Assembly (NCBI RefSeq): GCF_036588685.1
Contig: NC_086383.1
Span: forward strand, 19,158,001 to 19,222,000
Direction of reading: 5' to 3'
DNA: 64,000 nucleotides
From: Mytilus trossulus
Lineage: Eukaryota
In this document: positions 2,023 to 50,300 of the stretch, piece by piece
How positions within the stretch are numbered: position 1 is the stretch's first letter
Layout of the letters: each line of letters begins with the position of its first letter
Position numbers and translations under genes: made by a program
Notes under the pieces: model-generated
Database searches by the model: none
Told to the model about the DNA's origin: nothing
What the model saw: only the letters and a program-made list of their open reading frames with translations

Positions 2023-2367
2023 TACTAATTGGACAACTCTGTCCTTCCATCAAGGTTACATCATCAATAGCAACAATGGCGGGTGCTAAAAAGGAAGTGT
2101 CTCCATAGGCAACAAACTCAATAGTTGTCTCCCCTGCAGGAAGTTCAAAAGATCCTTCCAACCAATCATCAGTCTCCACATAGATTCCATTGGCATAGAA
2201 TACCAACTGCCTTACTCCAGATCTTCTTGAATAAACTTTCAGTTCTGCTGACACGCCCCCTTCCATGTTGTAATAGAATTTTACACATCCTCCAGGTGTT
2301 GTCAGATAAGGGGGAGAGGTCAAGGTTGCTGTCTGTCTACTGTCAGATGTGACAAACATGTAGTGAC
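2023..2367 (-). CDS. Exon, MAM14 C-terminal part (GHYMFVTSD...[17 protein letters not shown])
   Basis: CAG acceptor, GTAAG donor, 345 nt, phase 1-1. Confidence 0.93.
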
Positions 2368-17300: not shown

Positions 17301-20300
17301 GAAGGGTTTAACATTGGGTTGGTCGTTTAATAAAAACTACTTTGAACTTGTGAGAATTGTTTAGAACTATTCAACATACCGTATTATTTCCTTTCTGTGG
17401 TGTCAGGGAATAAAGTGCATGTCTTAGTTTTTATGCAAACTGTGCAAATTCATTGAATGATTTGTCTTTTTAAAGCTATTCACAACAAGAAAAACTACAA
17501 GTAAGAATATATCAAAAATGATAGGTGTCCACTTATAAATTGAATAGATAATTATGTCTATAGTTATTGTTAAATACAAGTGGACATACACAATCATTTC
17601 AGCTATTCTTTCTGCCAACAGGATTTTAAGATGTGACATTTATGGTCTAGATTTTTGACTTTGTACAAGCACCAAATGTTGTTTAAAGTAACAGTTGATG
17701 TCTTTATTTAGATGTCTTCCATTTAACTTATCTATTTTGTTCATATGTGTATTGTTGAGAGGGAAAAACATTTTAAAAAACCATGTTCAACCACACTGCC
17801 TGTTTACCATCTAACAACAGCAAAAATTTGGAAAGCAGGTAAAAAATGTGGTGTTTGTAGCTTTATAATAAATTTCATTATTATACTTTCAACTACTATT
17901 CAACCTTGAATCAACTTTGAATGGATGTTGAAACTTCAACGTTGAAATGACAACGTTATTTCAAATTTTTAAAATCAAACATAAATTTTACATTGTTTCA
18001 ACGTTGAATCAACTTTGTTTCAATGTTGAATCAACGTTGAGTGCCTGCTGGGCAGTGATCTCCCCTTTCTCACCCAATTGACTGCCATAAGAATGATCCC
18101 ATTTTTCTCTAATTTTGGTGCTATTTTCACATTTCTTGATCTGTGCGAGAAAAATATCCCTCACTATGTTGAAATATCTGTTCTCGGAAAATGATAGTTG
18201 AAATTTGATTATGACGTCGAAATGTTTTGTTTTCTTCTGAATTTTCCTATTGTGACGTCATGAAAAAAGGCGATTCTGACCCTATAACTTATGAATAACT
18301 ATATTTCTCCACTCTTGTCAGTTAAATCTTAATTATTTGAAAAGCTCGGCAAGCCTTACGCTTAATAAATAATAAAATTTAACTGTCTCATGTGGAGAAA
18401 TATGGTAATACACTTAAGCTTGTTGCAGTGTGGGAATAAATATTGTAGCTATGCTTCTAAAATGTTGTAAATTACAAAATTTTCAAGAAAAAAATATCTC
18501 ACAAACAGGCTTTCAAAATTTTGGCAAAATGCATGCTTCCAAAATGTTGTATGTGAACTTGAACTTTTTTGTAAATAGCAGTGAAATAAAAACTTTGACA
18601 TTTCTGGATTATCCAAGAACTTAATTATTTTCACAGAAATAAAGAAATGTACAATTATTTTTTTCATAAAGCAATTCTACAACAATATTCAAGTTTTTAT
18701 ACAACATTTTGGAAGCAAACTTTACAAACAACTGACATTGGCAATTTTGTAATATGTCTTATTTCACACATTTTGATTGGTCTAACTGTATGCTATTTTG
18801 TAAAACCAAAGATTTCCTCCCCCCAGACCATTTGTGTCAAAAAGTATTTTTTGCCAAAAAAGTCATATACAACATTTTAGAAGCCAATATATATCTCATG
18901 TCTCTCACCTGATTTATTGCCATAAGTATGATCATAGATCATCTCTTGATAGATAACTTGTTTGGACTCTATCACGTCATAACTACTGTAATATCCACAC
19001 CGGAACTTATCTTCAAAGTCACAACTTATACTTCTATCTGTAACAAGAAACATCTTATCTTTAGGAATGTATTAATTCTGGCATCCATTAGATAATATAA
19101 AAAGTTAGGGCTGTGTTTTAATTTATAAGACAAAAATAGGGGGGATGGGAGACACTCTAATTAATTAAATATGGGTGGATGAATTTTCATCAGATCACAA
19201 AGAGTATTCATTATTTTAATGAATAATAAGTAAAAAATATTATATTATTGAGTCTCTTTAAGGTGGTACCCAACACTTTCCCCAAAATAAATTTGGCTCT
19301 TTTAATTTTCTTAAAATTTTAAAAAGTATTTACTGTGACCCTTTTACAAAGATATAAAAAAAATCAAAAAATATGAACCAAGCGTTTAATCAGAAAAATT
19401 ACACTGGTTATATAGCAGTTTAACAAACACTAATTTTGATCATTGAGAAGCTTTCCATTGCCTTCACAATGCAACCTAATTCAAACGTTTAGCTGATATT
19501 ACAGAGTTATCTCCCTGTATTGTTAGGTACCACCTTAATAACCAGTAAATTTGTTTTTAACAATGATAACATTACTATTTCTCCAGTAGTTTTATATATG
19601 AAAATATTTTCCCAATATGAATATTTTTGTTTTATTAGTACAATATTGAATACACCTTATCGCTATTTATCCGCCATTGCTGGAAGTTCACACAGGTTCC
19701 CGTAAAATGTTGACGTCACAAAACAAAATATCTGACGCCACAATGGAAAAGTGATTGTTGTTGACGTCAAAAGTTCAAGCGGCAGGGTCAGCCGGGATTA
19801 GCGATAAGGTGTATTGCACGATTATTCAGTAGCTATAGTGAAATCTGTTTTTTAATGATTTCGAAAATTAGAAAGTAAACTTTGTTTTCCGTCATCCAAT
19901 TATCTGTAAATTGATGTGTTCTTGCTTAGATCTCCATTATGGTCACTAAAGGGAAATAACATTTGATCAAAATGAATTAAGTGTAACATATTTAGAAATT
20001 TTTTAATTTGAATCTGAAGGTGGTACCCGACACCTTGACTAAAATTAATTTGCCCCATTTAATTTTCATAAAATTTTACAAAGCATTTATTTTAATCCTT
20101 TGACAAAAATATAAAAATTTCAAAAAATTTCAACCGACCATTTTATCAAAAAAATTACACTGGTTATATAGCAGTTTGACATGCACTAGTTTTGATCTTT
20201 GAGAAGTTTAATATTCCCTTAACTACACAATGTGATTAAAACATTTAGCTGATTTTACAGAGTTATCTCCCTGTAGTGTCAGGTACCACCTTAATAAACA

Positions 20301-23300
20301 GCTTACCACACAATGTTGTCTCATCGGAATGATCGTCACAGTCAAAATTGAGATCACAAACTTTACTCAAATCTATACAATAATAACCACAACTAAACTG
20401 TCCTGGACATGCTGAAAAATAAAATAATATTATACAGTGAAACCTATCTTAACTGTCCTGGACATGCTGAAAAATAAAATATTATTATACACAACTTTCT
20501 ATTTGTTGTTATTGGCCTTGAACTAAGTTTTCAGTGAATGTGAGTACTCTCAATATGTATGCATTGTGTCTTTTAGTTTTGTTTTTTGTAACCTTTTTTT
20601 GTGTGCTTTTTTTCAAGTCTGATGAACCTTATTCAAATGATTTTAATAGTTGTTCTCATGTTGTTCTGTTCCATTACCGACCCAGGTTAAACAGTGGCTT
20701 GACCACCTGCAAACAAGTTCAACCCTGAGCCAAATTTTTTGCTTGATTGTCCAAAGTCAGGAGCCTGTAATTCAGTGGATGTTGTTTGTTGCTGTTTATC
20801 ATATACTGTGGATTCATTAATTTTCTTGGGTACCAAATTTCGTGGATTCAGGAAAACTTGCATGTTCGTTGATATTTAATTTCGTGGTTTTGCAAGGACT
20901 GCTTGCACACCTATATAAAATATGCCATTTGTTGAACATTTAATTTCGTGGTTCACTTGTACCCAAGATAACTACGAAAATTGGTATCCAACGAAAAATA
21001 ATGAGTCCACAGTATTTGTTTTCCTTTAGTAGGCAGTAAGTTTTTATATTTGAATTGTTTTACATTATTCATTTTGTAGCCTTTAAAGCTTGCTATGAGG
21101 TATTGGATTTGCATTTTGTTGATGGCATTACTGTGACCTAAAGCTGCTTACTTTACACCATTTGTTCTATGTTGGAAAGTTGTTTCATAGGCAATTATAC
21201 CACATCTTCTTGTTGTTATACCTAATCTAAAAACCTTCATCATCTGAGAAATGAATGAACAGTTAATGGATGGATAGATAGATATGGTCAGTTGCACAGA
21301 CCAAAAAAATAATGCCAATTTAAATATCGTAGACAGGGAAGGAAATTACCAAATCTAAAAATTCTTGTCGGGGAAATTTTGTACATAGAATTTTTGTTGA
21401 TACATGTATTGACTTTTAATTGACTTCTGTGTGAGCCAAGACCGTATTTTGACCTAAAAATATTTTTTTTTGGACAAATTGTGACTATAATGGAGAGTTG
21501 TCTCATTGACACTCATCACATCTTCTTATATCTATGTATTTTTTAAAAAAGATTTGTAAGTTCAGTAAGGTATATATTTGGCTTGATTATTTAGATGTTT
21601 TAGGATAAAGAATGTTTGAGTTGATAAAAACACTTGTGATACGTTAAATAGAATGTATTTTTGTCAAAGTTTTATTTGAAAGCATTGTAAACCAATTTGT
21701 ATTCGTGGATACTTTACTTTACATTTTCTAGTCCAATTGTTTTTTCAATTTCCAGATGTTCTGATTCACTGGAGGTAAACAGATAAGGGAAAATACAAGT
21801 TTAATGTTTCTGTGACGATTTTAATTCGTGTTAAGTTACATTAGTACTTGTGAAAATCAGGAAAATAAATTGCTTGCAAAAATTGGTAGGTTTACAGTAA
21901 TTATAGTTAAAATAAAAGTGTACTTACTTATCTCTTGACAATCTCCTGGTACAATAGCAATGTTATCAATTCCGGCCTGTCCAAGTTGCATGTCAATAAT
22001 TAGAGAAGCATCTGTTAAATTTCCTGTATATTCAAACTGTCCTCGATTCCAACTGCCTGAGTCTCTTCTCATACTCCATGCAGGGGTCCAAACAACATTT
22101 CCGAAACGGTATGACATCATATATATAGATAATGACACATTATATCCTGCCAGAAACTTAGTATAGTAATCAAAAGTTATACAGGATTTCTCTGTTACTG
22201 ATAACATTGGTGATAACACACTGCAGCCGTCTTGGAAGTTACTAGAATTACAATATAAAAACCGTCCTACAAAAAACAAAAACATGTTAAAAGCTTTTGT
22301 GAAATCATTTAATTTTGTGGATACAAGTTTTTGGTAGATTGAGGAAAAAGTTGAATTGTCATTCATATTTGGTTCAATAATTCTCAAATTCTGGATTCAA
22401 GCCTGCGGAAGATGTTTTCTTCGTTGAATGTTTGTTTAACTTATACCCACTCAAACAGCTATTCAATTTACTGTGGATTCATTAATTTTCATGGGTACCA
22501 ATTTTCGTGGATTTAGAAAAACTTGCATGTTCGTCGATATTTTATTTCATGGTTTTGCAGAAGTCTGCGTGTATGCCTATATAAAATATGTCATTACATT
22601 TGATTTTGTGGTTCACTTGCACCCATGAAAACCACGAAAATTGGTATACAACGAAAAATAATGAATTCACAGTATGATTTTAGATTTGAAGAAATTGATT
22701 GAAATAATGGAAGATCTTCAAAAGTCAATAAGTAGCATGTACCAATATCTGAACTTAAAACATGACCTTGACCTCCGACATTTTGCTTTATTACCAAATA
22801 AAAGCTATATCAATCTGAACACCTTCTGTTTTATACTGTATGGTTTTAATTTGTTACAATTTTTTTAACAAAATTTAAATCTTCAAAGGTCAATAACTAG
22901 AACATACCAGTATCTGAACTAGCTACAGCAGCCATATTGTCTGAATCATGTGATGCTGACGTCCAACCACTATCACTTAACAGATTAGTGTTATTTCTGT
23001 AACCACATAGGAAAGTCTCATCCTCAAAATCACATGGTACAGTGGTCCCTACAAAATAAATATATGTATGCAGAAATAATTGTACGTTTTTAATATGAGG
23101 CAGGCATTACCTGTGAACGCTGTCATTAGGTAACGTCTTTTTTATAACAAACAATTTTTAAAATTTTTAAAAATGAATTTTTATTGAGTTCCTTTCTTTG
23201 ACTGATAAATATAAATTTTATTCAGTCTCATGCAAACAAGACCAGAAACGGAAGTAGATATCTGCGCAGACCTGGAAATTACAAAACGAATTTGAGTTCA

Positions 23301-26300
23301 TTAGTACAATGAAAAATTTGGGACTTTTCCTGTCAGATTTTTTTTCTACTGTAATTCAAATAATAATGCAACTGAGTGAGTATAGCAATATGTAGGAACT
23401 TATATTTTGATATCAGATTTACATATACAATTGTATGTAGATTTTTTTTTAAATTGGAAAACTAACCTTGTATTTCTGTCCTTTCCACAAAAATTGTCAC
23501 ACATGTAAATACAAATGCACACAATAAAATCTGAATTTACAGTACACAGAAATAAGACAGTGAGCATCAAGTCTGTCTAAAACAAGGATAAAAGATTCTG
23601 CCCTGATTAAAACATATTGTCCATTTTTGTTTGCACCAGTGTTCAAGGTTAGTTGAGGGTAAGGCACCCGCCAATATGGTTAAACACAGTCACCTTGTAT
23701 TTGTGTGTGTCCTTAATTCAGGATCCTAGTGTCATTCACAGCTTATCATTGGTAACAGGTCACAAGTGCCATTGTTATATTTCATATTTTCTTTGTTTAT
23801 AGTTTCAGCATCAGTCTGTTATTTTTCTCTGTTAAATGTTTTGTATTTTGAAATGTTTGGGTTCTTTTATATAGCTAACTATAATGTGTGGATTTGGTCA
23901 TTGTTGAAGGCTGTATAGTGAACTTAATGACCTCAAACCTACATCCTTTGTTCTCAGGTGAATAGTTGTCTCACATTTTTTAATTAAAGTCAAATAATTT
24001 CCCACAAAATGTGGTTTCACAATCTGTGAAAAAGTGATTTTACATGATGCTAGAAAGTTATTTGGAGGCAGATCTGGGATCTTTCTAAGAAAAGTATGCC
24101 AATTACCCTCAAGCGTAAGTACATCTAATAGAAAAATAACTTTAAATATTACCTGGGCAACTGCCATCCATAACATAAATATTATCTACTGCTATATCTC
24201 CTTTAAATCCTGAAGCTTTGGTTGCCACAAAATATATATTCTGTTCTGTGCCAGATGGTAAGGAGACACACCCTTTAATCCATGCCATATCCTGCTGCCC
24301 TGTCTTAGTCCAGAGCTGGGTAACAGTAGATGTACCTGTGTCATGTGACATAATGTCTAGTGTGCCGATATCATCTCCTAACATGTGGTAGGAGAAATAT
24401 AAACTGCTGGGATTATTACTGGTGAATGATGGGAAGGATAAGTAGGTTGTATCGCCTGGATTACCATGGGAACTCTCAACATACATAAAATGTCCTGTAA
24501 ATGAAAACATACTTTGATATTATCCCTCTGTGAATGATAATGACAATTACAACAATGTCTCTTGGTTATTTATGACTGATAAAAAGATGCAAAGTATGAA
24601 TATCTCAGATAAACTAGAAAGAATTTACATACACTATCTTAAACATGTATAATTTTTACTAAATCTGTACTGAATAGAAGAGAAAATATTTCAAAATTAA
24701 GTCAGTCCCACTAAAAAAACTGCATTTGCAGGGGCAGACCCAGCCATTTTAAAAAGAGGGGATTCCCAACCCAGGACAAAAAAAGGGGGGGTTCAATCTA
24801 TATGTCCCCATTCAAATGCATTGATCGGCCCAATAAAAAGGGGGGTTCCAACCCCGGAACCCCCCCTGGATCTGCCACTGATTTGCTAGTCTTTTCCAAA
24901 CAACATTGGTACCCATGAAGATAAATCAATTCATAGTAATTATCTCCCTGTATGGTATGGGGGACAGTACAAGCATGCTATTTGTCCTACATTGTAGGGA
25001 ATTTAGACACATTTAAAAGTACATATAATGGAAGCGTAATGCTTAGCACCATTTTTTTCTTTAATCATTATATTCTGTAGTGTAGCAAACATAATGTATA
25101 AATTACCTGCAAGATTTCCATAAGCATCACCATATGGCCCCGTGTTATCTGATGGGGTCTTACTTTGCTGTCTGGACCATTGATATTTAGACCCTATGGT
25201 ACAATTGGAGGAGTACTGACAAGTGTTGGTCCCCTCAAAGTTACATGTAACTTCATCCAGTCGTTCTGCAAATATATTAGAATACATCTACATACAATTT
25301 TTTTTTCAAAATTAAAAGCAGGCAAATATGACCTGTAACAATTCTTAACTGTTGGTTTCATATAAACAAAACTAATATAGAACAGTATACCTAAGAATAC
25401 CCTGAACTTTTAAATTTATACCTATACTAAAGAAATTATTCTTTAAAATTTGAACATTGAAAAAATTAATGGTAAGTAAAAAAGGTCAGTGGAATTAAAT
25501 GATCATACTTGAAAATGTGAAAACTTAAAACATATGGAATTAAAACATTTCTATGGTTTAAGAAGTTTTCATTGTAATAATAGTAATTAATTCATCACAA
25601 AAATTAGCCATTTCACAATCAATTGCATCCTGCCAATTTCTGGGTGATATTTTCAAAAGGGTACACCAAAACTTTGTGATTGGTTTAAAATGTCAAGAAC
25701 AATAGAATTTCAACCAATGATGTGAAATTCATTCTGGTGTACAAACAATGAGATTACCAATAGTCCTTTAGATTCTGAAAAGATAAATATTGACACTTAC
25801 CTTGACACATTCCATCTGAAATCACGACATCATCAAGAGCGAACACAGAATCGCATCCGTCACCCAAAACAGCGGAAAATGTTACAGATGCATTACCGGT
25901 TGGTAGATTTACACAGGAATAATACCATTCGTCACTCTGACTTCCAGCCATTGAAAATACCAAAGACGTTTGGACTACAGTACCGTGTTGGTTTACAGAA
26001 ACTTGGAATGTTCCCATGTTGAGTCCATTCATGTGGTAGTAGAACGATGCCTTCATTGGTTTGGATGGCTGCACCTCAAATGGAACGGTGGTAAGATGGG
26101 CAAGGTTTCCTTCAAATGTGTTGGGCAAACATGTTGAAGTATACATGTAACCTCCTACAAGAATAAGGAAATCATCTGTATATCAAAAATAAAAAAAACA
26201 TGTATTTCAGGACACAAATGCCCCAACTCAAATTGGTTTGACAGATGGTAAGACAAAACAACTTAAGGGGGAAAGGACGGAAAGACAAAAGGACAGATGG

Positions 26301-29300
26301 ATTGGAAACAGAAAGACAGAAAGACGAAGGTTAAGGTTACAATTAATGCCCCTGCAAAAGCCTCCATTGTCAACGACTGGGGCATAAAAAGTTTTAAATC
26401 TCTTTGAAAAACTATACATTAACCAAACATGATTAATGGTCAAATACACAATATTGACCATTATGCATTTTGTTTTCATTTCTTTAGTATCAAATAAGTA
26501 GAAAATCACTCAAACATTTCAAAGCATTATATATTTATTGTAATGATATAAACATAACAAGAACGCATGCTAAGCATGCACTTACTTGTAATTCAAAGTA
26601 TTGGTAGACAGGAAGTAGGTGTCTGACAGATCTGCCTGTTCAGTTGCAGACCAGTATACAATTATCAAATCAGGGATCCAGGAAAAACCTACCTGAACTG
26701 GTACCTTCTGTATGATCTACTCTTGGTACATACTGTGCCGCCATGGAAGAATAGTTTTGCATCAGATTGTATGTTCCCCAATTCCATGCAAAGGGTGACT
26801 CTGACAATCTGGTGTAACGACAGAATGTGGCCGACTGGAAATCACATGACGCAAAATCTACAATAGAAAGGTTCATAAAGAGGGTCTCAAAAGGTTTTAA
26901 TGAATAATCTAATATGATGTGCTTCTTTTGTTTTGTAACCAAAACCTTGATAAAATTCTTAATATATCTATACTTGGCACAGACCCTGAGATGTACATAA
27001 TTATGGCTGTTACAATATATCTCTACTTAAATACACATGTATTGTGTATAACCTACATAATTATGGCTGTTACAATATATCTCTACTTAAATACACATGT
27101 ATTGTGTATAACCTACATAATTATGGCTGTTACAATATATCTCTACTTAAATACACATGTATTGTGTATAACCTACATAATTATGGCTGTTACAATATAT
27201 CTCTACTTAAATACACATGTATTGTGTATAACCTACATAATTATGGCTGTTACAATATATCTCTACTTAAATACACATGTATTGTGTATAACCTACATAA
27301 TTATGGCTGTTACAATATATCTCTACTTAAATACACATGTATTGTGTATAACCTACATAATTATGGCTGTTACAATATATCTCTACTTAAATACACATGT
27401 ATTGTGTATAACCTACATAATTATGGCTGTTACAATATATCTCTACTTAAATACACATGTATTGTGTATAACCTACATAATTATGGCTGTTACAATATAT
27501 CTCTACTTAAATACACATGTATTGTGTATAACCTACATAATTATGGCTGTTACAATATATCTCTACTTAAATACACATGTATTGTGTATAACCTACATAA
27601 TTATGGCTGTTACAATATATCTCTACTTAAATACACATGTATTGTGTATAACCTACATAATTATGGCTGTTACAATATATCTCTACTTAAATACACATGT
27701 ATTGTGTATAACCTATGTCCAAATGTTATACAATATACAGATTAAAGAAATTGCTGATTCAAAATTGCAATTGAAAAACTTACAGTTTCTTTTTTGTTAT
27801 TATGAGGCTTTTTTTTCATCACATCAAATTGACTGTTTTTAAACCTGTTTAGCTAACAGAATCGATTCAAAGAACAAAAAGAGTTTAAATTAACATGACT
27901 GTTTTTAACCTGTTTAACTCAAAGGAACAAAAGTTTTGTTTTTCCCAGATTAGAATCAGTAGGTTGCATTCATGGAAAAGCGATCAGGATTGTAGTTACG
28001 ACAATAGAAGTATAAACTTACGTGGACATTCAGTTCCTAACAGTTCAACATCATCTACTTCTATATCATTAGCATATGAGCTCCCTCTAGTGGCAACAAA
28101 TTCAAGTTGACCATTGATTATCTCCCCTGTGGTGAACTCTGACATTGGCACACAAGCTGATTCCCATGATCCATAGGTGTCCAGAGAGTCTTTCAGGAAT
28201 ATTTGTTTTGTTTCTCCATTGTGGTTCAAATTTACCTTGAATAAAATAAACATGATCTTTGATAAGTATTTGTTTTGTTACTCCATTATGGTTCAAATTC
28301 ACCTTGAATAAAAGAAAACCTGATTATTTGGAATATAATGTATAAAGTTATAAAGGGACATAACCAATATAAAGTTATATAGGGACAAGGCTAACTCAAG
28401 TTAAAGAAGGAAAACAAAAATTCAGCAATTTTTGCATTTGCAAAGGAGCATAACTCCTGTAACAATTAAAGTGACACCCCTAAAATTTAAACTTGATCTG
28501 TATTTTGTGGTAATAAGCATTGTGTATAAGTCTCATAACATTTGGTTAAGGTGAAGATAAGAGAATGGAATTCAACTTTGGTAGGTACAGACAACCAATA
28601 GTAACTCTTAATGCCCCCTCTGATGGGGGCGTGATGGGGGCATAAAAAGTCTTTCTCCAGGCACTTCAACCACCAATAAAAAAGGGCCACCATGAAATAG
28701 CCCAAAGGCGGTGCTTAAAAGTGGCGTTAAAAATGCAAAATATCAAATCAAATCAAATACTGGAATACCTGTAAAGATCCACTACAGCTATCATTTCTGC
28801 TGCCAGTATTCCTATATTTTAATTTCAGATTGTGACTGGTTGTGGCATTGAGTGGCAATGTAAATTTGGCCTTGTCCTCATGTCTTCCAAATGATGCATC
28901 TGCTGTTAGATATTTACCAGCATCTAGGTGGAGTAAAAAAAAAAAGTTAGTGGAAAAAAAAACAATCAATAAGAATAAATTAATATGAAAACAATATTGT
29001 TAAAAAGCAGCAAAAATGGCTAGAAAAGACTTAACACTAAATATAGAATTGTCAAAGTTAAATTGGTCAATCTGAAAATTGTGCAGTTATTATCTTTTAT
29101 TATACAAACCACTAGAAGATCCTAGAACTAAGCAGACCAAAATAAGTGTATAGGAAGATTGTGCATGTAAGCAAATAATGTGATTCATCCTCCAAATATG
29201 ATATTGCATGAATTAAAGTATACAACATAAGTTCACTAAGAATATTTTAGCATGCTTCTTAAGTACAGAGGTGTCTTAATTGTTTTTTTACATACTATAA

Positions 29301-32300
29301 TAAATTGAGAATTGAAATGGGATATATGTCAAAGAAATAACAACCTGACCAAAGAGCATTTAGTATCATATTATCATAAGCATATATTAACTTAAATATT
29401 AAAAATTACCTGACAAAGAAGTATTAAAACCTGCCCAAACCCATTGGAATGGAATTGGATCAGCTATTCTGGTAGAGCATTCTATGTCCCATGGACAATT
29501 CTTATCAAATTCACATATACTATACGGGAAAGGCTCTGTAAATAAAAAAAATAATAACATATAAAAACAAATTCATATACTGTTTATTGCATATATAAAC
29601 TGCAAATTTTTGTTTTCTTATTTTATATACATGATAGTTTGCATATATAAACCTAGAATTCATAAATTTTTGCAATGTAATATACTATGAATTTTGAGGA
29701 AAATGCAACACAATATATGTCATAAAATTCAAAACTCCCATTTTCATAAAACCGAATTTTGACTCTTGAATTTTTCATTTTTTAACAGGTTACTTATAGG
29801 CTGTACAGTGACCTATAGTTGTTAATTTCTGTGTCATTTTGGTCTATTGTAGAGAGTTGTCCCATTGGCAATCATACCACATCTTCTTTTTTTTTTTATA
29901 TATATATATATATATCAAATTTTAAGTTTTCATTCATTGATATCCTAATGTATCATAATTTGCTTACTTTTGAATCATGTTCATTTCATTAAATTATAGA
30001 GAGGAGAAGGTCACGGTAAGGCCCTAAAATGGCTCCTATTTCTTACTTAAATTTGGACTTACCGCATAGTTGGTTATTTTCAAGGGGTGTAAATTTTTCG
30101 CTAATTTCGCAGATAGAACAAAATCACCAAAATAAATTCTGTTAACTGCAAAGTGTACATGCAGAGGTATTGATAAAAGTTTATAATCCACCAAAATATT
30201 TCGTATAACTTATTTAATGAAAATAGTGAAATTTTACACCTACTAAAATAACCCGCTATACAGTATTGACCAATACCACAATGAATCATATATAGCATAT
30301 ACAATGACTATATAGGCAAGATGTCTTTTTGTGGAAAATTCTATTCACTATGTTAAAATTGCATGTAGCAATCTTTTTGATTTTCAATTATAGGTAAATC
30401 TCAATTTTTTACCTACCAGTACATTAAGGTGATACCTAACACTACAGGGAGATAACTCTGTAAAATCAGCTAAACGTTTTAATAACATTGTGTTGTAAAG
30501 GGAATAATAAGCTTCTCAATGATCAAAATTGGTGTTTGTCAAACTGCTATATAACCAGTGTAATTTTTCCGACAAAACGGTTGGTTAAAAATGTTTGAAA
30601 TTTTTATATTTTTGTTAAAGGGTCAAAGTAAATACTTTGTGAAAATTTTATCAAAACTAAACGAGCCAAATTAATTTTTGTGAAAGTGTTGGATACCACC
30701 TTAAATGTTAAAATCAATGCTTTCAAATAAAACTTTGACAAAAATACATTTTCTATTTAAAACTTATCACAAGTGTTTTTATCAACTTAAACATTCTTTA
30801 TCCTAAAACATCTAAAGAATCAAGCCAAATATATCCCTTACCAAACTTACAAATCTTTTTAAAATACATAGATATAAGAAGATGCGGTATGAATGCCTGG
30901 CATTAAAACACTCTCCATTTAAGTCACAATGTGTAAGAGTAAACCATTATAGGTCAAAGTACGGCCTTTTACAGAGTCTTGCCTCATATCTAATATGATT
31001 ATGCAAATGAGGCTTACTAAAAATAGATATGTTTATGGGAAAAATTAAGTGGTAAAATACTTTTATCTTATGTCAAGGATTAAGATGATATATGAGAATT
31101 GTCAAGTTCTGATTGTTGATGTGGACAATTTTCTGAATATTGCATGTTTTTTTGGAGGTTTTAACACAAAGCTTATATGTATGGGTTTGTGTTGCTTATT
31201 CTTTAGTTTTCTATGTTGAGTCATGTGTTCTATTGTTTGTCTGTTTGTCTTCTTTCGTTTTTAGCCAGGCGTTGTCAGTTTATTTTCTATTTATGAGTTT
31301 GATTGTCCCTCTGGTATCTTTCGTCCCTCTTTTATATATCTTTAGACAAGTAAAATTTCAATAAATAAAGTACATAACATCAATTAAATGTACTCACTTG
31401 GACATATCTCTTGCTCTTGAACTTTGATCTCATAAACATAAGCCTTTATATATGTATAACTTCCAGAAGGAAGAGGAGAAGTAAGTTTTCCTGTTATAAC
31501 CAAGTTACCATTTACTAATGATGGTAAATCATAACAAGCACTTGTATCTCCAGGTTCGGCATATCCAAGGTCGTAGGTCATATCCGCTGTCTTAAGTTGG
31601 ACATGTAACTGTACAGCCGGATGAAAAATTGTCAAATTTAGGAATACACTTCCACTAGATGGCGTTGTGAACATGTTGGATATTAATTCTGATGATACAC
31701 CTCCATATATATTAGAATATAAGGCAAAACCTGTGAAATAAACAGATAATTGATTTCTCTATCATTGAGTAACTTGCAAATCTGAAACAAACTTTGAGGA
31801 AAAGTTTGAGGCACGCAACAGGGTACTTTCATGACGAATAATAGTCAAAAATCTTGCGAAAAGACATTAATGGTAACTTTTTGTGCACTCTTTATACCAG
31901 CATATGTGACAATAAAACAATCAACTGATTTTAACAAATCACATTAATTATTTTCCTAAAATGACAGTAACGGTCAATTATTTAAGACATTGAGCTCTGA
32001 CAAATCACAATAAGAAACAGAAAACCCCACATACCATAACTATGTTGCGACCATCCATTGCCGTAATTGTTGACTGTGTAGGAACAGGTTCTCTGATTGT
32101 AAATACCAAACTTGCAATCTATTGCACTACTCTGAACAGCATCAACTAAAACAGAAAATTAAAAATAATATCTATTTTACTTAATAAAAAAGCTTAAGGA
32201 TATGGGTATAATTCATGACACAAAAAAAGGGCATACACACCATTGTGTTAAAAAAAAAAAAAAAAAAAAAAGACAGTGCTTTTATTGCTTAAATCCATCG

Positions 32301-38300: not shown

Positions 38301-41300
38301 AGTCAATACTTACTTGTTCCATATGGAGTAGTTCTAGGGGTTGTATTAGTGGAATAATTTGTTGATAGGCTGTCAATACTTACTTGTTCCATATGGAGTA
38401 GTTCTAGGGGTTGTATTAGTGGAATAATTTGTTGATAGGCAGTCAATACTTACTTGTTCCATATGGAGTAGTTCTAGGGGTTGTATTAGTGGAATAATTT
38501 GTTGATAGGCTGTCAATACTTACTTGTTCCATATGGAGTAGTTCTAGGGGTTGTATTAGTGGAATAATTTGTTGATAGGCAGTCAATACTTACTTGTTCC
38601 ATATGGAGTAGTTCTAGGGGTTGTATTAGTGGAATAATTTGTTGATAGGCAGTCAATACTTACTTGTTCCATATGGAGTAGTTCTAGGGGTTGTATTAGT
38701 GGAATAATTTGTTGATAGGCAGTCAATACTTACTTGTTCCATATGGAGTAGTTCTAGGGGTTGTATTAGTGGAATAATTTGTTGATAGGCAGTCAATACT
38801 TACTTGTTCCATATGGAGTAGTTTTAGGGGTTGTATAAGTGGAATAATCTGTTGATAGGCAGTCAATACTTACTTGTTCCATATGGAGTAGTTCTAGGGG
38901 TGGTATTAGTGGAATAATTTGTTGATAGACAGTCAATACTTACTTGTTCCATATGGAGTAGTTCTAGGGGTTGTATTAGTGGAATAATTTGTTGATAGGC
39001 AGTCAATACTTACTTGTTCCATATGGAGTAGTTCTAGGGGTTGTATTAGTGGAATAATTTGTTGATAGGCAGTCAATACTTACTTGTTCCATATGGAGTA
39101 GTTCTAGGGGTTGTATTAGTGGAATAATTTGTTGATAGGCAGTCAATACTTACTTGTTCCATATGGAGTAGTTCTAGGGGTTGTATTAGTGGAATAATTT
39201 GTTGATAGGCTGTCAATACTTACTTGTTCCATATGGAGTAGTTCTAGGGGTTGTATTAGTGGAATAATTTGTTGATAGGCAGTCAATACTTACTTGTTCC
39301 ATATGGAGTAGTTCTAGGGGTTGTATTAGTGGAATAATTTGTTGATAGGCAGTCAATACTTACTTGTTCCATATGGAGTAGTTCTAGGGGTTGTATTAGT
39401 GGAATAATTTGTTGATAGGCAGTCAATACTTACTTGTTCCATATGGAGTAGTTCTAGGGGTTGTATTAGTGGAATAATCTGTTGATAGGCAGTCAATACT
39501 TACTTGTTCCATATGGAGTAGTTTTAGGGGTTGTATAAGTGGAATAATCTGTTGATAGGCAGTCAATACTTACTTGTTCCATATGGAGTAGTTCTAGGGG
39601 TGGTATTAGTGGAATAATTTGTTGATAGGCAGTCAATACTTACTTGTTCCATATGGAGTAGTTCTAGGGGTTGTATTAGTGGAATAATTTGTTGATAGGC
39701 AGTCAATACTTACTTGTTCCATATGGAGTAGTTCTAGGGGTTGTATTAGTGGAATAATTTGTTGATAGGCAGTCAATACTTACTTGTTCCATATGGAGTA
39801 GTTCTAGGGGTTGTATTAGTGGAATAATTTGTTGATAGGCAGTCAATACTTACTTGTTCCATATGGAGTAGTTCTAGGGGTTGTATTAGTGGAATAATTT
39901 GTTGATAGGCAGTCAATACTTACTTGTTCCATATGGAGTAGTTCTAGGGGTTGTATTAGTGGAATAATTTGTTGATAGGCAGTCAATACTTACTTGTTCC
40001 ATATGGAGTAGTTCTAGGGGTTGTATTAGTGGAATAATTTGTTGATAGGCAGTCAATACTTACTTGTTCCATATGGAGTAGTTCTAGGGGTTGTATTAGT
40101 GGAATAATTTGTTGATAGGCAGTCAATACTTACTTGTTCCATATGGAGTAGTTCTAGGGGTTGTATTAGTGGAATAATTTGTTGATAGGCAGTCAATACT
40201 TACTTGTTCCATATGGAGTAGTTCTAGGGGTTGTATTAGTGGAATAATTTGTTGATAGGCAGTCAATACTTACTTGTTCCATATGGAGTAGTTCTAGGGG
40301 TTGTATTAGTGGAATAATTTGTTGATAGGCAGTCAATACTTACTTGTTCCATATGGAGTAGTTCTAGGGGTTGTATTAGTGGAATAATTTGTTGATAGGC
40401 AGTCAATACTTACTTGTTCCATATGGAGTAGTTCTAGGGGTTGTATTAGTGGAATAATTTGTTGATAGGCAGTCAATACTTACTTGTTCCATATGGAGTA
40501 GTTCTAGGGGTTGTATTAGTGGAATAATTTGTTGATAGGCAGTCAATACTTACTTGTTCCATATGGAGTAGTTCTAGGGGTTGTATTAGTGGAATAATTT
40601 GTTGATAGGCAGTCAATACTTACTTGTTCCATATGGAGTAGTTCTAGGGGTTGTATTAGTGGAATAATTTGTTGATAGGCAGTCAATACTTACTTGTTCC
40701 ATATGGAGTAGTTTTAGGGGTTGTATAAGTGGAATAATCTGTTGATAGGCAGTCAATACTTACTTGTTCCATATGGAGTAGTTCTAGGGGTGGTATTAGT
40801 GGAATAATTTGTTGTAAACAGTCAATACTTACTTGTTCCATATGGAGTAGTTCTAGGGGTTGTATTAGTGGAATTATTTGTTGATAGGCAGTCAATACTT
40901 ACTTGTTCCATATGGAGTAGTTCTAGGGGTTGTATTAGTGGAATAATTTGTTGATAGGCAGTCAATACTTACTTGTTCCATATGGAGTAGTTCTAGGGGT
41001 TGTATTAGTGGAATAATTTGTTGATAGGCAGTCAATACTTACTTGTTCCATATGGAGTAGTTCTAGGGGTTGTATTAGTGGAATAATTTGTTGATAGGCA
41101 GTCAATACTTACTTGTTCCATATGGAGTAGTTCTAGGGGTTGTATTAGTGGAATAATTTGTTGATAGGCAGTCAATACTTACTTGTTCCATATGGAGTAG
41201 TTCTAGGGGTTGTATTAGTGGAATAATTTGTTGATAGGCAGTCAATACTTACTTGTTCCATATGGAGTAGTTCTAGGGGTTGTATTAGTGGAATAATTTG

Positions 41301-44300
41301 TTGATAGGCAGTCAATACTTACTTGTTCCATATGGAGTAGTTCTAGGGGTTGTATTAGTGGAATAATTTGTTGATAGGCAGTCAATACTTACTTGTTCCA
41401 TATGGAGTAGTTCTAGGGGTTGTATTAGTGGAATAATTTGTTGATAGGCAGTCAATACTTACTTGTTCCATATGGAGTAGTTCTAGGGGTTGTATTAGTG
41501 GAATAATTTGTTGATAGGCAGTCAATACTTACTTGTTCCATATGGAGTAGTTCTAGGGGTTGTATTAGTGGAATAATTTGTTGATAGGCAGTCAATACTT
41601 ACTTGTTCCATATGGAGTAGTTCTAGGGGTTGTATTAGTGGAATAATTTGTTGATAGGCAGTCAATACTTACTTGTTCCATATGGAGTAGTTCTAGGGGT
41701 TGTATTAGTGGAATAATTTGTTGATAGGCAGTCAATACTTACTTGTTCCATATGGAGTAGTTCTAGGGGTTGTATTAGTGGAATAATCTGTTGATAGGCA
41801 GTCAATACTTACTTGTTCCATATGGAGTAGTTTTAGGGGTTGTATAAGTGGAATAATCTGTTGATAGGCAGTCAATACTTACTTGTTCCATATGGAGTAG
41901 TTCTAGGGGTTGTATTAGTGGAATAATTTGTTGATAGGCAGTCAATACTTACTTGTTCCATATGGAGTAGTTCTAGGGGTTGTATTAGTGGAATAATTTG
42001 TTGATTGACTAGTTCCTGTACTGCTATTTCTCAAATAGTCTGAAATAAAATTAATATTACACTCTAATTAAAATGTATTAAAGAGTTCAATTTTTGCATC
42101 AATGTTGTTATGAAAATTTACTCTTAAAGTTTGACAACTCAGGGGTGTGGAAATATTTGTTGTGAGCACTTGTCCCCGGGCAAGTGAAACCTAAAATTTT
42201 ACTTGTCCGGAAAAAAATTTACTTGCCCTGATGATCCCAATAAATATTGAAGTATTTCTTGTTTTATGTAGCTAATATATGATTTTTACTTAGCACTGTT
42301 GTGCATCACAAACAAATGAAATCCATTTGTTTATATGTGTAATAAATAAGGAAAGTAGGATAGGGTTTACATCAATTGGACAGAAACCTAATAGCAAACC
42401 AACCAATGAAATGACATGTATAAAAGGACAATTTTGCAGCAGTTTTGGAATAAAAATTGAAGCCAGTCATATACTAAATTTGAGGACAGTGATTGAAGAA
42501 ATATAAACTAAATAATAGATAAACTATTGATTTTGTGGTGTTTCTCTCAACTGACACACTTGATTTTTTCTTGATTATTTATTATTGTCTTGATGGGCAA
42601 TTAAAGCGTCCCTTCAGTCTTCTTTTTACCACTTGGACAACAAATTATGTTGATCTTTCATCTATAAATAAGACAAAAACTTAATTTATTTTCCGAATTT
42701 CCATAGATAACCAGGGGCAATTTGATATTCACGATGTCTGAAATTCTTGCTTCCGTTTTTTTTTTTTAAATACTCTGTGTCCTTCATTTGCATTTAAGGT
42801 TTTCTAATCGACTCATGACTCTTTTTGTCTTGCTTGCCCAGCTTTTTATTAAGTATTTATTAATCTGAATCTCAATACAAAATTTAAAGAAATGACACTT
42901 CCGGTAAATGATGGATAAAACCTAATCGACGATCCCGGGTCAATGGACAAAGCCAATGGCAATGTTACGCGACTTGGGTTCGCATACTTTTTTTAATTTA
43001 TTTTGGTAAGCGATCTATTTCCAGTATAATGTAATAATTATCGTCATGAACATTGATGTTTTTACTTGCTGAACATTGGTTTCTTTTACATAAATTAAAC
43101 ATCTTTATACGTTTTGAAATTAATTTTATGTTTTTGTTGGATTTGAACCTTGTCTTGTATATTTTTTTACTTGTCCACGGGCAACCAAGACAAAAATAAT
43201 TACTTGTCCGGTTGTTCAAATGTACGAGTCGGGCGAGTCGGGCATAGCATTTCCACACCCCTGCAACTAAATATTTTCTTTTAAAATATTTTAATATTGT
43301 GTTTCTGAAAAAAAAAATATTCACTCACACGCTAAAAATGTAAAACAATTAGAATGAGAAAATAACAGCCTAATTAATAACAAAAGAAATTACAAAACAC
43401 ATTATGACTTTAACTCCATGACAACCAATGAACTTCAGTCTCCTGACTTAGGGCAGGCACATAAAGAATTTGGTTGTGTTAAACTTACCGGGACAAGTGG
43501 TGTAACAGCACATTTTATTGTCATTGTCAATATAATGGTATTTCATGTGACTGTCATACAAGTGAGAGGTATAGCTAGCTATAAAACCAGGCTTAAACCA
43601 CCATTTCTACATAGAAAATGCCTATACCAAGTCAAGAATATGACAGTTGTAGTCCATTCGTTTGATGTGTTTTATCATTTGATTTTGCAATTCAATTAGG
43701 GACTTTCCGTTTTGAATTTTCCTTGGAGTTCAGTATTTTTGTGATTTTACTTTTAATCATAAACAAACGTATAGTAGGCGTCACGTCTTGTATGTACTTG
43801 CATACTGTGCAAATACAATAAAAGGTAGGACAGTAGTAGATATTTAATTGGATTTGTCTTCCGCTAATTAAAAAGCATGATCTCGAGTAAACACGGTCGA
43901 TATTTAAGAAAATTTTGACAAATCGTGATGCCAATTTTACGTGACGGCAACTATAGTAACATACCTGGTAGCTTTATACAATCCTTATCATCACGCAACA
44001 GATTACAGTAGTAAACCAGATTGTAGTTGTTCAATAAATTGTGGTGACGACATACTCCAAAATGTAATGTATGGAAGGCATCTAAAAAATATATTTAATA
44101 CTGACATTCATTCAAATAGCGGTGAAAAAATAATATCAATTTGCATCTGAGCTGTGTCAGATAAAAATCGTAAATAACAAGATATCTTATTTGCAACACT
44201 TTTGACAAAGGTGAAAACAATATATCAAAAATTTGAAGTTGCCAGTGTTTTGTCTATCATCTCATAGACATAGTCATGTAACTATGACATTATCAATGTT

Positions 44301-47300
44301 TTTTCATAATTTACTCTGGCTTTGAATGAAATTTAAAATCAAAATCAAAGGAATGACTGTAATAATTTTTCTGCATGTTCAAAGTAACATAAAAATGTGG
44401 TGCACACTTTAAAATAACTCACTGCACGGGTTATTCAGTTTACACCACATTTTTTTATGTACTTTCTTCATTGGCAGAAAAAATATTACAGTCATTCCTT
44501 ATTTTTCCTATTCTATAAGCACCATCTAGAGACTCACGAAGAAAAATGCTTAGATATACATATTTCAGTGTTTAGTATGACGTCCATTTGTTTAGGGGCC
44601 AGTTGAAGCACACTTCCTTGTGCAGGATTTTCTCGCTGCGTTGAAGACCCATTGATGGCTTTCGGCCATTATCTGCTCTTTGGTTTGGTTGTTGTCTCTT
44701 TGACACATTTCGCATTTCCATTCTTCATTTTATTAATTAAACATATGGAGGATTTTGTTTGTAACATTTGTTAGTTTTAATACATACCCAGGCAACTTTG
44801 TCTACAGATCTGTTGAGTGGTACCATTCTGACAGGTTGGAAGTGACAAAGCACACAATGTGTGTGAGTACACTGTACTACAAGTATCGTATGGGGTTCTT
44901 GCCCAAGAGTACCATTGGTCCATTGCTTCATATAGATTCATCTGACCGAAAACATTTGGGAATGATGTAAAATTCATTCCAAAATAATCAGAACATATGT
45001 ATGTGTTATGGCTAATACATCCATCTGAAAGATATAAGGTTTTACTGTAAATTCACTAAAACATATATATGAGTTATGGTTAAGACATCCATCTGAAAGG
45101 GTAACCTCTGAAAAATAAGTCAGTATAAGGTTTTACTGTAAATTCACTAGAACAATATGTAAGTGTTAGGGTTGAGACAAACATCTGAAAGATATAAGTC
45201 AGTATAAGGTTTTACTGTAAATTCACTAGAACATATATAAGGCCAATTAAAAATAATTGCTAGATTTTCATCCCCGCCCGCCCCTCTTAAATCGTCCCGC
45301 CCTGATTTTTTTTATTTAACAAAAATATGATTTCCGGATTTTGTTCATGTCAGTTACCGGGAACCATCGATAATTTCGTTTCATTTAAAACTTCCTGTTT
45401 CAAATTTCGTTTTTGTATTTTTTCAAGTAATCTAACGAAAATGATTAAGTCGACATATTCTGCTGCTCTATGATGACAATATCATCTACCGAGAATAGAG
45501 ATTGATAACGAGAAGGGCATGAAATATTCGAGTTACGAGTAAAATGCCTTGTCCTAGAACGCAAATTGCGGTAGTCACAAGTGAATCGAAAACTGTGTTT
45601 TTTACTTTATTTATAATACAATGACTTTGTGTCAGGAAATTTGGACTGAATGATTTCCAAAGCGCAAGAATTGTAGAACAAATTGGTACAAAAGAACATG
45701 ACTGGATTAAAGAAATTGACACAAGCGCGAACTTATTTGATTTATGACCGTATATTGAGAAAAAAAAGTCGACAAACACACATTTTAATTATAACAAGCC
45801 CTTATATTTACCCATGGCTATTGTTTTTGTTGACAAACAGCAAACACCTTCTGTAACTGTCCCAATACCCTCAATTTAGTCATTAAACGTGTTGCATACA
45901 ATTGTACCAATACATTTTCCTGATTCTATGGGGACTACAAACCATTGCTTAGAAAGCAAAATAAATTTGGTGTAGGTATAGTCCAACTGAAGAGAGCATT
46001 TCTCTTCTTTTTGATGTATACTATAAATAGGTTTCTAAGGCGGAAATTACATGTATAACAGTTGTTGCCAATCAGGGATTTTTATTTAAGAGTTTAAAAA
46101 ATAGTGTAGGATTCCTTATACAGCATGTATGTACATTATACAACTTGTTTTCCACTAGCATATACTCCGCGGTATGAAAAACTCGTGACGAGTGTTTCAT
46201 ATGAAATAAAATTTAAAAAATAAAATCCTCCCACCCGCCCCATTTTTTTCAAAAATTTGGATGAAAATCTACTAATTAATTTTAGTTGGCCTAAGTGTTG
46301 TGGTTATAATAACCATCTGAAAGATATAAGTCAGTATATAAGGTTTTACTGTAAATTCACTTGAACATATATAAGGCCAATTAAAAATAATTGCTAGATT
46401 TTCATCCCCGCCCACCCCTATTAAATCATCCCGCACTAGAACAATATTTAAGGAGGCTTGCGGGTATAAAATTTTCAGAAAAAAATCAAACGTTTATTTT
46501 TCATTACAAATTTTATTAGTTACCTTAAGAAGTTGTTACTTTATCATATGGTACAAAAATTCATCCAAAAAATCAATACGTGTTGGCCCCAGGTGAATTT
46601 TAAAATGTAGATATCATTGAAAAAGCTCCAAATTATCTCCCTTTGGTGCAAAAATGCCATTTTTTGGCCTTAAAATTTAAATATCTTGTTTAACTCATCG
46701 GTGACCTATATTTTTTATTGTTATTTTCGAAAAAGCCGTACATAAACTAGATAATTGTAAAATTTTAACCATTTCTGTAATTTAGTTCTCTTTTCATTTC
46801 TATATTACCACTTTTTCTCCTATAAGTTCAACAGAAAAAAAGGACATTAGCAAAAATGTATGCTTTTTTCGAAAGCAGATTGTGAGCGTAAATGAACTGT
46901 GACCCCATTTTTTTATTTCATTTTTCTATTAGGTATAAGATAAAGTTAATTTATAGAAAAATATAGCGAAATCTTATATTAAATAAAAAAAAATATTTAG
47001 ACCCGCGAGCCCCCTTAAGTGTTATGGTTAATATATCAATCTTAAAGATTTAAGTCAGTATAAGGTTTTACTATAAATTCACTAGAACAATATTTAAGTG
47101 TTATGGTTAATACATCCATCTGAGGAAACTAGTGGCTCTAAAGAGCCTGTGTTGCTCACCTTGGTCTATGTGCATATTAAACAAAGGACACACTTGGATT
47201 CATGACAAATTGTGATTTGGTGATGGTGATGTGTTTGTACATTTTACTTTAATGAACATTCTTGCTGCTTACAATTATCTCTATCTATAATGAACCTGGC

Positions 47301-50300
47301 CCATTAGTTTCAGAGGAAAATATTTTGTACAAATTTACAAAAATTTACAATTTTTTTTTAAATTGTTTAAAATTTACTATAAAGGGAATAACTCCTTAAG
47401 GGGTCAATTGAACATTCCAACATGACGTCCTTCAAACGCTTTGAGTACACAACCGTGGTAAAATATGAATATATTATAAGGGCTGTTCCGATTGTTCTCC
47501 CACATAACATGTTTTTTTATGAATGAGCTACTCGACGTCATAGAACAATGACGTCAGAATATAAGCAATTTACTGGAAAATACATGCACACAACAAGGAA
47601 ACGTAAACAAATGATGCTAAAACGAGTTATATTAGCCATTTTTGTATACATATGAGACATATAAGTACAATAATGATTAAGTTCATCTAAAATTATCTAA
47701 ATATGTTATTATAAATAGTTTAAGCATCATTATTTGTTCAGTTTGCTTCGTTATTTAAGTCAATTTAATTGTGCGTTTATTTATTGGAAAGGCAAAAAAT
47801 GCCATCACCTAGAGCGCTTCAATCCAAAATAATTGCCATATTTGTCCTATTAGAATCGAAATAATTCATGGGGACTAGAATGTATCTAGATTTTACCACC
47901 GGTTGTCCCTTTATGCCGATATTATACCCCCGCTATCGCTCAGGGTAAAATATTTGTCATAAAGGGCCAACCTGTGGTAAAATCATGATATGTTCAAGCC
48001 CCCATGAATTATTTCTTAATTTTGATGATCTCAACCTGATTGCCACTTTTATCCCTTTGTAAGATTTGCTCTAAATGCTTTAGTTTCAGAGATACATGTA
48101 CAAGCCAAACACTGCATTTTACCACTAGGTTCTATTTTTTGCCATATCGGCCATTTTAGTTGGTGGGCAGGATCATTGGACACATTTTTTACACAAGATA
48201 TCTAAGTGATGAGTGTGGCCAAGTTTGGTTTAATTTGGCTCAGTATTTTCAGAGAAGATTTTTGTAAAAGTTAACAGATGACGAACGATGGACGCCAAGT
48301 GAGGAGAAAAGCCTTTGGGCCAGGTGAGCTAACAAAAAGTCAGAATAAGATTTTAATATAAATTCAGCAAAAACATATGTACATACATACTGAAGGTAGT
48401 GCACAATTTGCGATTTGCGATACATTCACCTAAATTTGGCAGTTTTAGTCTCATTACTCCAGATCTGGTCACAAAAATTCACAATGTTTGATCAAAGCAT
48501 TATCTTGTTTTTGTATGTCAGCAAACACAGCAAATGAACAGAGGTTTACTTATATACTAACTATATAATGGCAACATGTAAAATGTCTCAGCCAAGATAT
48601 GAACATGGTAGGACTGATAGGCTGAATCTAATGTTTGAAAATTTTCACGGTAATAAATCAACATATTTGCATTAAAAGTAAACATTTTTTGTATTTCAAT
48701 ATAGACAATAGAAGTATATATTTTTGTATTTCAATACAATTGCTTGTTTGAACTTATATGTCACTTACCATTGAATGGTGATCTTGGCATTGATGTTGTT
48801 CCAATTTCTGTTGTTTGTCCATTTTCTGGTTCCATATTGGTCGTGAATTCTGAATTAGTGGGTCTATTTTCTGGTTCAGCATATGTCGTGAGTTCTGAAT
48901 CTGTTGGTCCATGCTCTGTCTCAGATTCAGTAGTTGGTCCATTTTCTGGCTCAGATTCAGCAGTTGGTCCATTTTCTGGCTCAGATTCAGCAGTTGGTCC
49001 ATTTTCTGGCTCAGATTCAGCAGTTGGCCAATTTTCTGGCTCAGATTCAGCAGTTGGCCAATTTTCTGGCTCAGATTCAGCAGTTGGCCAATTTTCTGGC
49101 TCAGACTCAGCAGTTGGCCAATTTTCTGGCTCAGACTCACCAGTTGGTCCATTTTCAGGCTCAGATTCAGAAGTTGGTCCATTTTCTGGCTCAGATTCAG
49201 CAGTTGGTCCATTTCCTGGTTCAAAAACAGTAGTTGGTCTGTTTTCTGGTTGTAAATTAGTAGTTGGTCCATTTCCTGGTTGTAAATTAGTAGTTTGTCC
49301 ATTTTCTGGTTGTAAATTAGTAGTTTGTCCATTTTCTGGTTGTAAATTAGTAGTTGGTCCATTTCCTGGTTGTAAATCAGTAGTTGGTCCATTTTCTGGT
49401 TGTAAATTAGTAGTTTGTCCATTTCCTGGTTGTAAATTAGTAGTTTGTCCATTTTCTGGTTGTAAATTAGTAGTTTGTCCATTTTCTGGTTGTAAATTAG
49501 TAGTTGGTCCATTTCCTGGTTGTAAATCAGTAGTTGGTCCATTTTCTGGTTGTAAATTAGTAGTTTGTCCATGTTGATATTCAGCAGTAGTTTCCTCTGT
49601 GGTCTGCCATTGCCATGCATAAGGAGTTGTGACATCTACATCTGCATTTAACATTATCAATAAATAAAATAATGCAACTTTTCAAAATCATGATAAAATT
49701 GTCAAAAAATTAACATGCTCAAACTTCAAAAGCATAGATAAAATTACCAAATGTGCAGAAAAAACTCACTTCTTTATTACATAAAGAGAAAAAAGCATGC
49801 TCTAGGACCAAAAGATACCATATCTAATACAAATATCATTTCAAATCATAAGCAGATAAGTGAGATAATTCTTATTTAGTTCCATTGTAAAGCAATATTG
49901 TCCTATGAAATATTGTACCACAAGACAATATTTCATTACTATGTATCATGAAATATTGTCCTCGTCTATGGAAAAATGTCCAAAGGACAAATTTTCATGT
50001 TGAAATTTTGTCTTGTTAAAGGGAGGTTATATTTTGTGAGAATTGAGACAATATTTCACAGAGGAATACTATGAAATTTTGTCCTCTTAAAGGGAGGTTA
50101 TATTTTGTGAGAATTGAGACAATATTTCACAGAGGAATACTATGAAATTTTGTCCTGTTAAAAGGAGGTTATATTTTGCGAGTATTGCGACAATATTTCA
50201 TTGACAGTTTGTCATGGAATTTTGTCTCATGAAGGGTAGGTTATCAACATATATTCATGTAAAAGAAGGTATATAGGATTTGGTTTTCCTGCGACACACG

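Follow-up and report, generated by a model that had tools for sequence, protein, structure and literature searches.

Local duplications across exon-intron borders in a MAM gene of Mytilus trossulus and their excess over intronic background at donor sites

In a stretch of 64,000 nucleotides of the Mytilus trossulus genome (C11:19158001-19222000, hereafter the window), six exon borders of a single gene, encoding a MAM / LDL-receptor class A (LDLa) / Fz repeat protein, are accompanied by copies of the sequence that spans the splice site. The copies exist, they are local, and in a 2-Mb sample of the assembly (1.30 Gb in 541 contigs) they exceed the intronic background at donors and not clearly at acceptors. 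The difference between donors and acceptors is firm, as is an excess at donors, although how large it is varies with the null model. On balance, the copies are probably short local duplications that happened to span junctions, neutral by-products kept since splicing of the gene continues at the original site.

The gene model runs from 63417 to 2023 in 38 exons (2744 codons, 0 stops), several of its joints are confirmed by spliced contigs from presumed RNA runs, and all six duplicated sites are exon borders in this stop-free model. Copies were compared with their originals by local alignment, and splice sites were scored with a matrix trained on the window. The gene and the duplicated junctions are the following.

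2023..63417, minus strand: host gene, MAM / LDL-receptor class A / Fz repeat protein, 38 modelled exons, extending beyond both window ends
18903..18933, minus strand: true donor 18909 and 25 bases of its exon, from which the echo derives (local alignment)
18068..18098, minus strand: decayed echo of donor 18909, 26/31 identical, donor score 6.5 against 10.8
20393..20436, minus strand: true acceptor 20411 of an LDLa exon, 25 intron and 19 exon bases
20448..20491, minus strand: decoy acceptor 20466, 42/44 identical, offset 55, score 13.1 against 13.5 and thus nearly full strength
22835..22920, minus strand: true donor 22908, 13 exon bases and the intron head
22669..22755, minus strand: decayed copy of donor 22908, 67/88 identical, offset 165, score 2.7 against 10.7
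28189..28250, minus strand: true acceptor 28235, phase 0, AG then GT, 47 exon bases
28256..28317, minus strand: decoy acceptor 28302, 67 bases upstream, 54/62 identical, score 4.9 against 7.9
37038..42005, minus strand: donor 41953 array, 71 x 70 bp, unit of about 54 exon and 16 intron bases
44990..45069, minus strand: true acceptor 45024 unit, Fz exon, intron end with a 13-mer that recurs at 23 distant sites in the sample
45060..48381, minus strand: copies of the 45024 unit, five decoy acceptors and one intron-only piece (48342-48381)

All six junction-spanning duplicates claimed in the original prediction were recovered as real by the local alignments. The largest is the array at donor 41953, said to be amplified about 70-fold, for which 71 copies of a 70-bp unit were counted. 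The true donor lies in the first unit, an in-frame stop follows directly, and 70 decoy donors come after it; the same 9-base donor is present in 71/71 units, which carry variants of their own at 13 variable columns. A mobile repeat was rejected as the source of this 70-mer, since 70/70 matches of a whole-genome search fell inside the array itself. Acceptor 45024, described as repeated about six times, has five AG-bearing copies (45092, 45184, 46316, 47040 and 47119, with scores of 6.3, 10.6, 10.6, 3.4 and -2.3 against 10.4 for the true site) in addition to the intron-only piece, and these copies are broken up by later repeat insertions. The echo of donor 22908 is likewise present, but the range first assigned to it (22716-22757) was too short, as alignment gives 22669-22755; it abuts a dispersed repeat at 22460-22688. 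The weakest case is the echo of donor 18909, located 835 bases into the intron with a dispersed repeat (18104-18444) between echo and donor. Its alignment score of 37 was reached by 0/469 other 3-kb pieces. Because it takes in only 6 intron bases, fewer than the 8 required on the intron side, it does not enter the junction counts given below.

These units resemble the mirages of lancelet genes (globins BflGb6 and BflGb9, Adh3, troponin C and PGBD5; PMC3087553, PMC3902484). The available portions of those reports describe tandem units of 10-160 bp over exon-intron borders, at donors as well as acceptors, many of which keep AG or GT; splicing is reported there as undisturbed, and the units are proposed as seeds of intron gain. 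Similarly, the six units of the window span exon-intron borders, many copies keep AG or GT, and the unit lengths (70, 55, 67 and about 68-90 bp) are within the mirage range of about 10-160 bp. Three of the six cases are spaced or interrupted copies and not clean arrays, those at 18909 and 22908 (835 and 165 bases apart) being looser members. In contrast to the lancelet mirages, which in the available portions of the papers are single loci presented without a chance test or a donor/acceptor comparison, six occur here in one gene and others at 31/1,130 junctions elsewhere. The array at 41953 is comparable to the 37-bp variable number tandem repeat in intron 7 of human F7, where, as far as the accessible part of the report goes, the true donor lies in the first unit, identical pseudo-donors follow, and the first alone is used (PMC1557585). 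In both, the first of the identical donors is the one used (for 41953, in the major form), whereas the mussel array has 71 sites against 5-9 and a 70-bp unit that is mostly exon. The acceptor pairs of 55 and 67 bp at 20411 and 28235 resemble human CBS 844ins68, described as a 68-bp duplicate of an intron/exon junction in which splicing prefers the distal site and yields normal mRNA (PMC2630376); unlike these pairs, the CBS insertion is a polymorphic human allele. Taken singly, then, the cases are ordinary mirages, and what is added here is rates and a donor-only excess over background. The open-access literature yielded case reports only, with no enrichment test of junction copies; subscription journals were outside this search.

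Use of the true sites was examined with assembled contigs, which lose rare isoforms, from 15 runs presumed to be RNA by a guess at their type. Contig X1 record 1 (1296 nt) proceeds from exon 44788 through 44081-43965 to 42039-41953 and departs exactly at 41953. It includes one exon that is known from contigs only.

43965..44081, minus strand: exon between 44788 and 42039, joints 42039-43965 and 44083-44790

Contig X12 record 7, which differs from X1 in organism code and study, departs at 41948; its overrun past 41953 amounts to five bases, and the piece differs at five letters. No contig lies over 41884-41947 of the first decoy unit (41884-41952), a result that speaks for the major form only. 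The first of the 71 identical donors is thus the major donor used. Donor 22908 is also in use: X12 record 13 joins 22907 to 22265, and X1 record 6 and X2 record 19 each have exactly 141 letters for its exon, indicating donor use by spacing. At acceptor 45024, one thin contig (X12 record 13, depth 2.1) ends at 45025; contig cover is missing over 45048-45260, which is not evidence of absence. Altogether, true-site use was seen at 3/6 sites (41953, 22908 and 45024), and no decoy use was seen at 41953 or 22908 in contigs of a kind that loses rare forms. At 18909 and 20411, repeat-derived contigs swamped the comparison, and 28235 lay outside the pieces compared with contigs. In X1 record 1, 1043 letters fall off the stretch; they correspond to six exons (1016) plus 27 and are uninformative on acceptor 28235.

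The frequency of junction-spanning copies was compared with chance by a scan of 2.04 Mb, consisting of the window and other stretches, along every diagonal with copy distances of 10 to 3000 bases. A diagonal scan was chosen since self-BLAST missed the 55-bp pair at 20411. Dispersed repeats were masked by cross-matching within the sample, junctions were called from profile matches and the splice matrix trained on the window, and an event was counted if the copy spanned a junction by at least 8 bases on each side. The unselected set comprised 1,130 junctions of genes that were not chosen for the feature, i.e. other MAM genes, myosins and dyneins; the dyneins were added after an early myosin-only count without excess (3 against 2.0-2.4 expected). 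The first pass accepted 135/177 and 253/283 junction pairs. Dropped before counting were 14 partial-copy profile matches in a MAM gene on C9, by hand, isolated matches more than 6 kb upstream of the window, and 8 matches in myosins and dyneins, by rule.

Copies were found at 31 of the 1,130 unselected junctions against 11.6 expected with masking (fold 2.7, 95% interval 1.8-3.8, P = 3e-7) and 18.6 without it (fold 1.7, 1.1-2.4, P = 0.003). A lower score cut gave 32 against 13.8 masked and 21.2 unmasked. By gene set, the events occurred at 8/242 junctions in the C9 MAM paralogue, 2/110 in other MAM genes, 4/272 in myosins and 17/506 in dyneins. The window, which was picked for the feature, has copies at 5/76 junctions versus 1.0-2.0 expected (P 0.002-0.04); set against the unselected rate of 2.7-2.8%, its 5-6/76 is only a high draw (P 0.02-0.06).

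Donors account for most of these events, with copies at 22/577 donors and 9/553 acceptors (P = 0.028), or about 4% of donors (1 in 26) and fewer than 2% of acceptors (1 in 61). Under a stricter position-based null, the masked fold is 2.6 (95% interval 1.8-3.7) for donors and 1.1 (0.5-2.0) for acceptors, and the unmasked folds are 1.4 (0.9-1.8) and 0.6 (0.2-0.95), respectively. The difference between the two kinds of site is independent of the null chosen. The units also differ in structure: the intron part is at least 13 bases in 12/12 acceptor units, whereas donor units go lower, and acceptor pairs are more diverged, with 46/380 exon-part mismatches versus 58/889 for donors. The original prediction had asked for junction overlap beyond expectation; on the present sample this holds at donors and is not clear at acceptors. 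Of the two origins it had offered, a mutational process focused on junctions or survival bias, the donor/acceptor difference fits survival; a junction-focused process, though not shown, is a possibility.

In the explanation that we favour, duplications would arise widely, by slippage or break repair, as many purely intronic ones do, and two or three cases may have arisen at a transposon end. A copy within an exon would be purged unless in frame, and a copy across a border would leave one exon intact. With donors, the first copy would keep the entire upstream context and be used, and later copies would be silent, so that arrays could grow from them. With acceptors, it is the upstream decoy that would inherit the native branch point and pyrimidine tract; acceptor copies may be partly purged because such a decoy would compete with the true site, which would be in line with the minimum of 13 intron bases in all 12 units and with their higher divergence. 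If selection holds one copy, junction pairs could outlast intronic pairs up to about twofold, and a raised rate of birth may be required for some of the donor excess.

Several observations weigh against this account. Junction pairs are not older than others (median two-copy identity 0.89, n = 12, versus 0.91, n = 107; P = 0.52), which argues against longer survival, since that predicts older pairs. Shielding from deletion would make intronic duplicates commoner near exons. In the sample, however, purely intronic local duplicates take up 0.5-0.6% of positions less than 200 bases from an exon and are rarer near exons than deeper in introns (0.5-0.9% within 400 bases versus 1.6-1.7%), a scarcity that is geometric in part, because a long event close to an exon crosses the border and is removed; general closeness to exons was rejected as a cause on this ground. 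Matching for G+C adds only 1.03-fold, so G+C content was likewise rejected. Against local flanks, the donor fold reaches 5.7 masked and 2.6 unmasked. Donor units are exon-heavy (19/24, P = 0.007; 12/16 among true tandems, P = 0.08). In addition, the splicing evidence covers 3/6 sites only and comes from contigs that lose rare isoforms in runs presumed to be RNA. Most of these points would suit a birth bias, in which exon 3' ends or coding DNA would give rise to duplications more frequently, the copies being neutral here too and survival setting only the donor/acceptor difference. Haplotype repair or recombination might pass from conserved exon into divergent intron and slip back, or lesions linked to transcription or splicing might be involved. 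The donor fold of 2.4-2.6 in masked nulls, the excess that persists among pairs at least 90% identical (18 versus 6.4 expected) and the lack of excess at donor-like motifs within introns (25/1203, 2.1%) also agree with a birth bias. However, without masking the donor fold under the position-based null is 1.3-1.4 and falls short of significance (P 0.09-0.15), the exon-heavy bias weakens in true tandems, where the median intron part is 24 versus 32 simulated (P = 0.16), myosins by themselves show no significant excess (4 versus 2.0-4.9 expected), and breakpoints at repeat ends (pooled P = 0.03, see below) point to a general cause. We consider a birth bias a possibility of lesser weight, which keeps its share because junction pairs show no greater age, intronic duplicates do not become commoner towards exons and exon sequence predominates in donor units. 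Its sharper form, that exon 3' ends are duplication hotspots where copies are born several times more than in introns and acceptor copies are selectively removed, is put forward tentatively. If true, mirages would gain a mechanism, their recurrence in highly variable marine invertebrates would be explained, and the copies would serve in their thousands as natural experiments on the choice of the first donor and on duplication as a route to intron gain.

It is quite improbable that no real excess exists, through a flawed null (an incomplete 2-Mb mask, merged events, a window-trained matrix) or through arrays that are assembly artefacts. The pooled excess does disappear under the position-based null without masking (fold 0.9-1.0), so that the result depends on the mask, and one counted event (C7:49.50 Mb) is in a multi-copy, possibly frameshifted exon. 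Yet intron ends at junctions are only 14-17% masked, and the masked or local null is therefore the fairer one; the event-based test is positive even unmasked (fold 1.5-1.7, P 0.003-0.013), the donor/acceptor difference persists under either null, array units carry their own variants, and the counts omit several likely events at borders that were not called. Very improbable, in turn, is a functional dial in which decoys divert transcripts to nonsense-mediated decay (NMD) or alter splicing efficiency and copy number tunes expression. An NMD-coupled splice switch has a decoy site that is used at a measurable level and conserved. The 70 perfect decoy donors after an in-frame stop, the GT or AG kept in 33/36 nearest decoys and the two 45024 decoys that score as high as the true site would fit such a dial. 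The expectation that decoy use leads to a frameshift or stop was also borne out: the products ending TCPGQLR-stop and YGTSKY-stop were confirmed, offsets of 67 and 68 put the reading frame out and lead to a stop, and decoy acceptor 20466 would give a stop. On the other hand, the nearest decoys are open in frame in 2/20 events (dynein events left out) versus 17% simulated (P = 0.30); poison decoys therefore need no selection, and selection for poison frames was rejected. Decoy donor signals have 13 mismatches in 211 positions, like the exon parts (58/889), the 9 donor columns of the 70-mer without variant reach only P = 0.13, and old decoys have decayed (scores of the 18909 echo and the 22908 copy). 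The contigs seen use the true sites, the same kind of copy occurs in unrelated genes, and the F7 pseudo-sites are silent in the available part of that report (PMC1557585). The proposal of tuning through NMD is consequently unsupported, with frame outcome at chance, the contigs seen on the true sites and decoy signals that mutate like their flanks. As for the companion proposal, that decoys seed new exons or introns, none of the copies was seen to have become a new exon or intron. Acceptors 28235 and 28302 each have an AG followed by a good GT donor, and use of 28302 would rebuild a donor; the GT-AG piece of 67 bases left behind would be a possible proto-intron, since splicing it out would restore normal mRNA.

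As to how individual copies arose, the spacer at 20411 is part of a piece that was traced through the genome.

20433..20453, plus strand: 21-base piece bridging the two 20411 copies, 21 exact genome matches, reversed control 0

At one genome locus this 21-mer has an inverted partner 210 bases on, and judging from these matches the piece likely represents one end of a DNA transposon of small size. The spacer at 22908 holds a repeat word. Breakpoints coincide with repeat ends in 4/18 junction and 8/113 intronic events versus 46/1015 controls (pooled P = 0.03); this test missed the 20411 spacer, which was detected by the 21-mer search. Duplication can proceed through repair at transposon ends, and the data suggest such repair for some events. 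Transposon ends as a general cause were rejected, as they appear in only 4 of the 18 junction events tested.

If the donor excess holds genome-wide, it would show splice-site choice filtering mutations and make the origin of mirages testable. Gene predictors may misread partial exon copies as exons, as the profiles used here did.

Pfam families in the host gene are MAM, Ldl_recept_a and Fz, and a family is missing for 3/10 and 4/6 of the gene pieces scanned. Exons 36471 and 33989 may be SRCR-like. In the orthologue search, 0/33 candidates were full-length, and the best of 24 matches were fragments 55% identical. Several further repeats were noted in the window. Exon 48769-49641 (873 bases) contains an in-frame 30-bp repeat of 21.5 copies forming a T/E/P-rich linker, a tolerated duplication internal to an exon. 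An intronic array of perfect 12 x 60 bp units (26994-27715) ends 137 bases before acceptor 26857 and does not span the junction. A high-copy dispersed repeat at 20017-20301 starts about 5 bases past donor 20307, and each of the four runs covers it with contigs at very high depth.

Other loci of the sample showed related features. In the C9 MAM gene near 52314000, a 104-bp donor array of about 13 units (3989-5361 of the local stretch) is one of the eight events counted there. Near G000:C8 54054600-54055000, the end of a dynein exon recurs in three partial copies 118 bases apart; they are about 4.3 kb past the exon, beyond the 3-kb scan, and were uncounted. The MAM exon near G000:C7 49502200 is split over two frames within multi-copy sequence, a possible frameshift or pseudogene. 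Finally, G000:C9:52350763-52361220 is a single open frame of 3512 amino acids with MAM and LDLa repeats within an otherwise intron-rich MAM gene, and is perhaps a block of lost introns.

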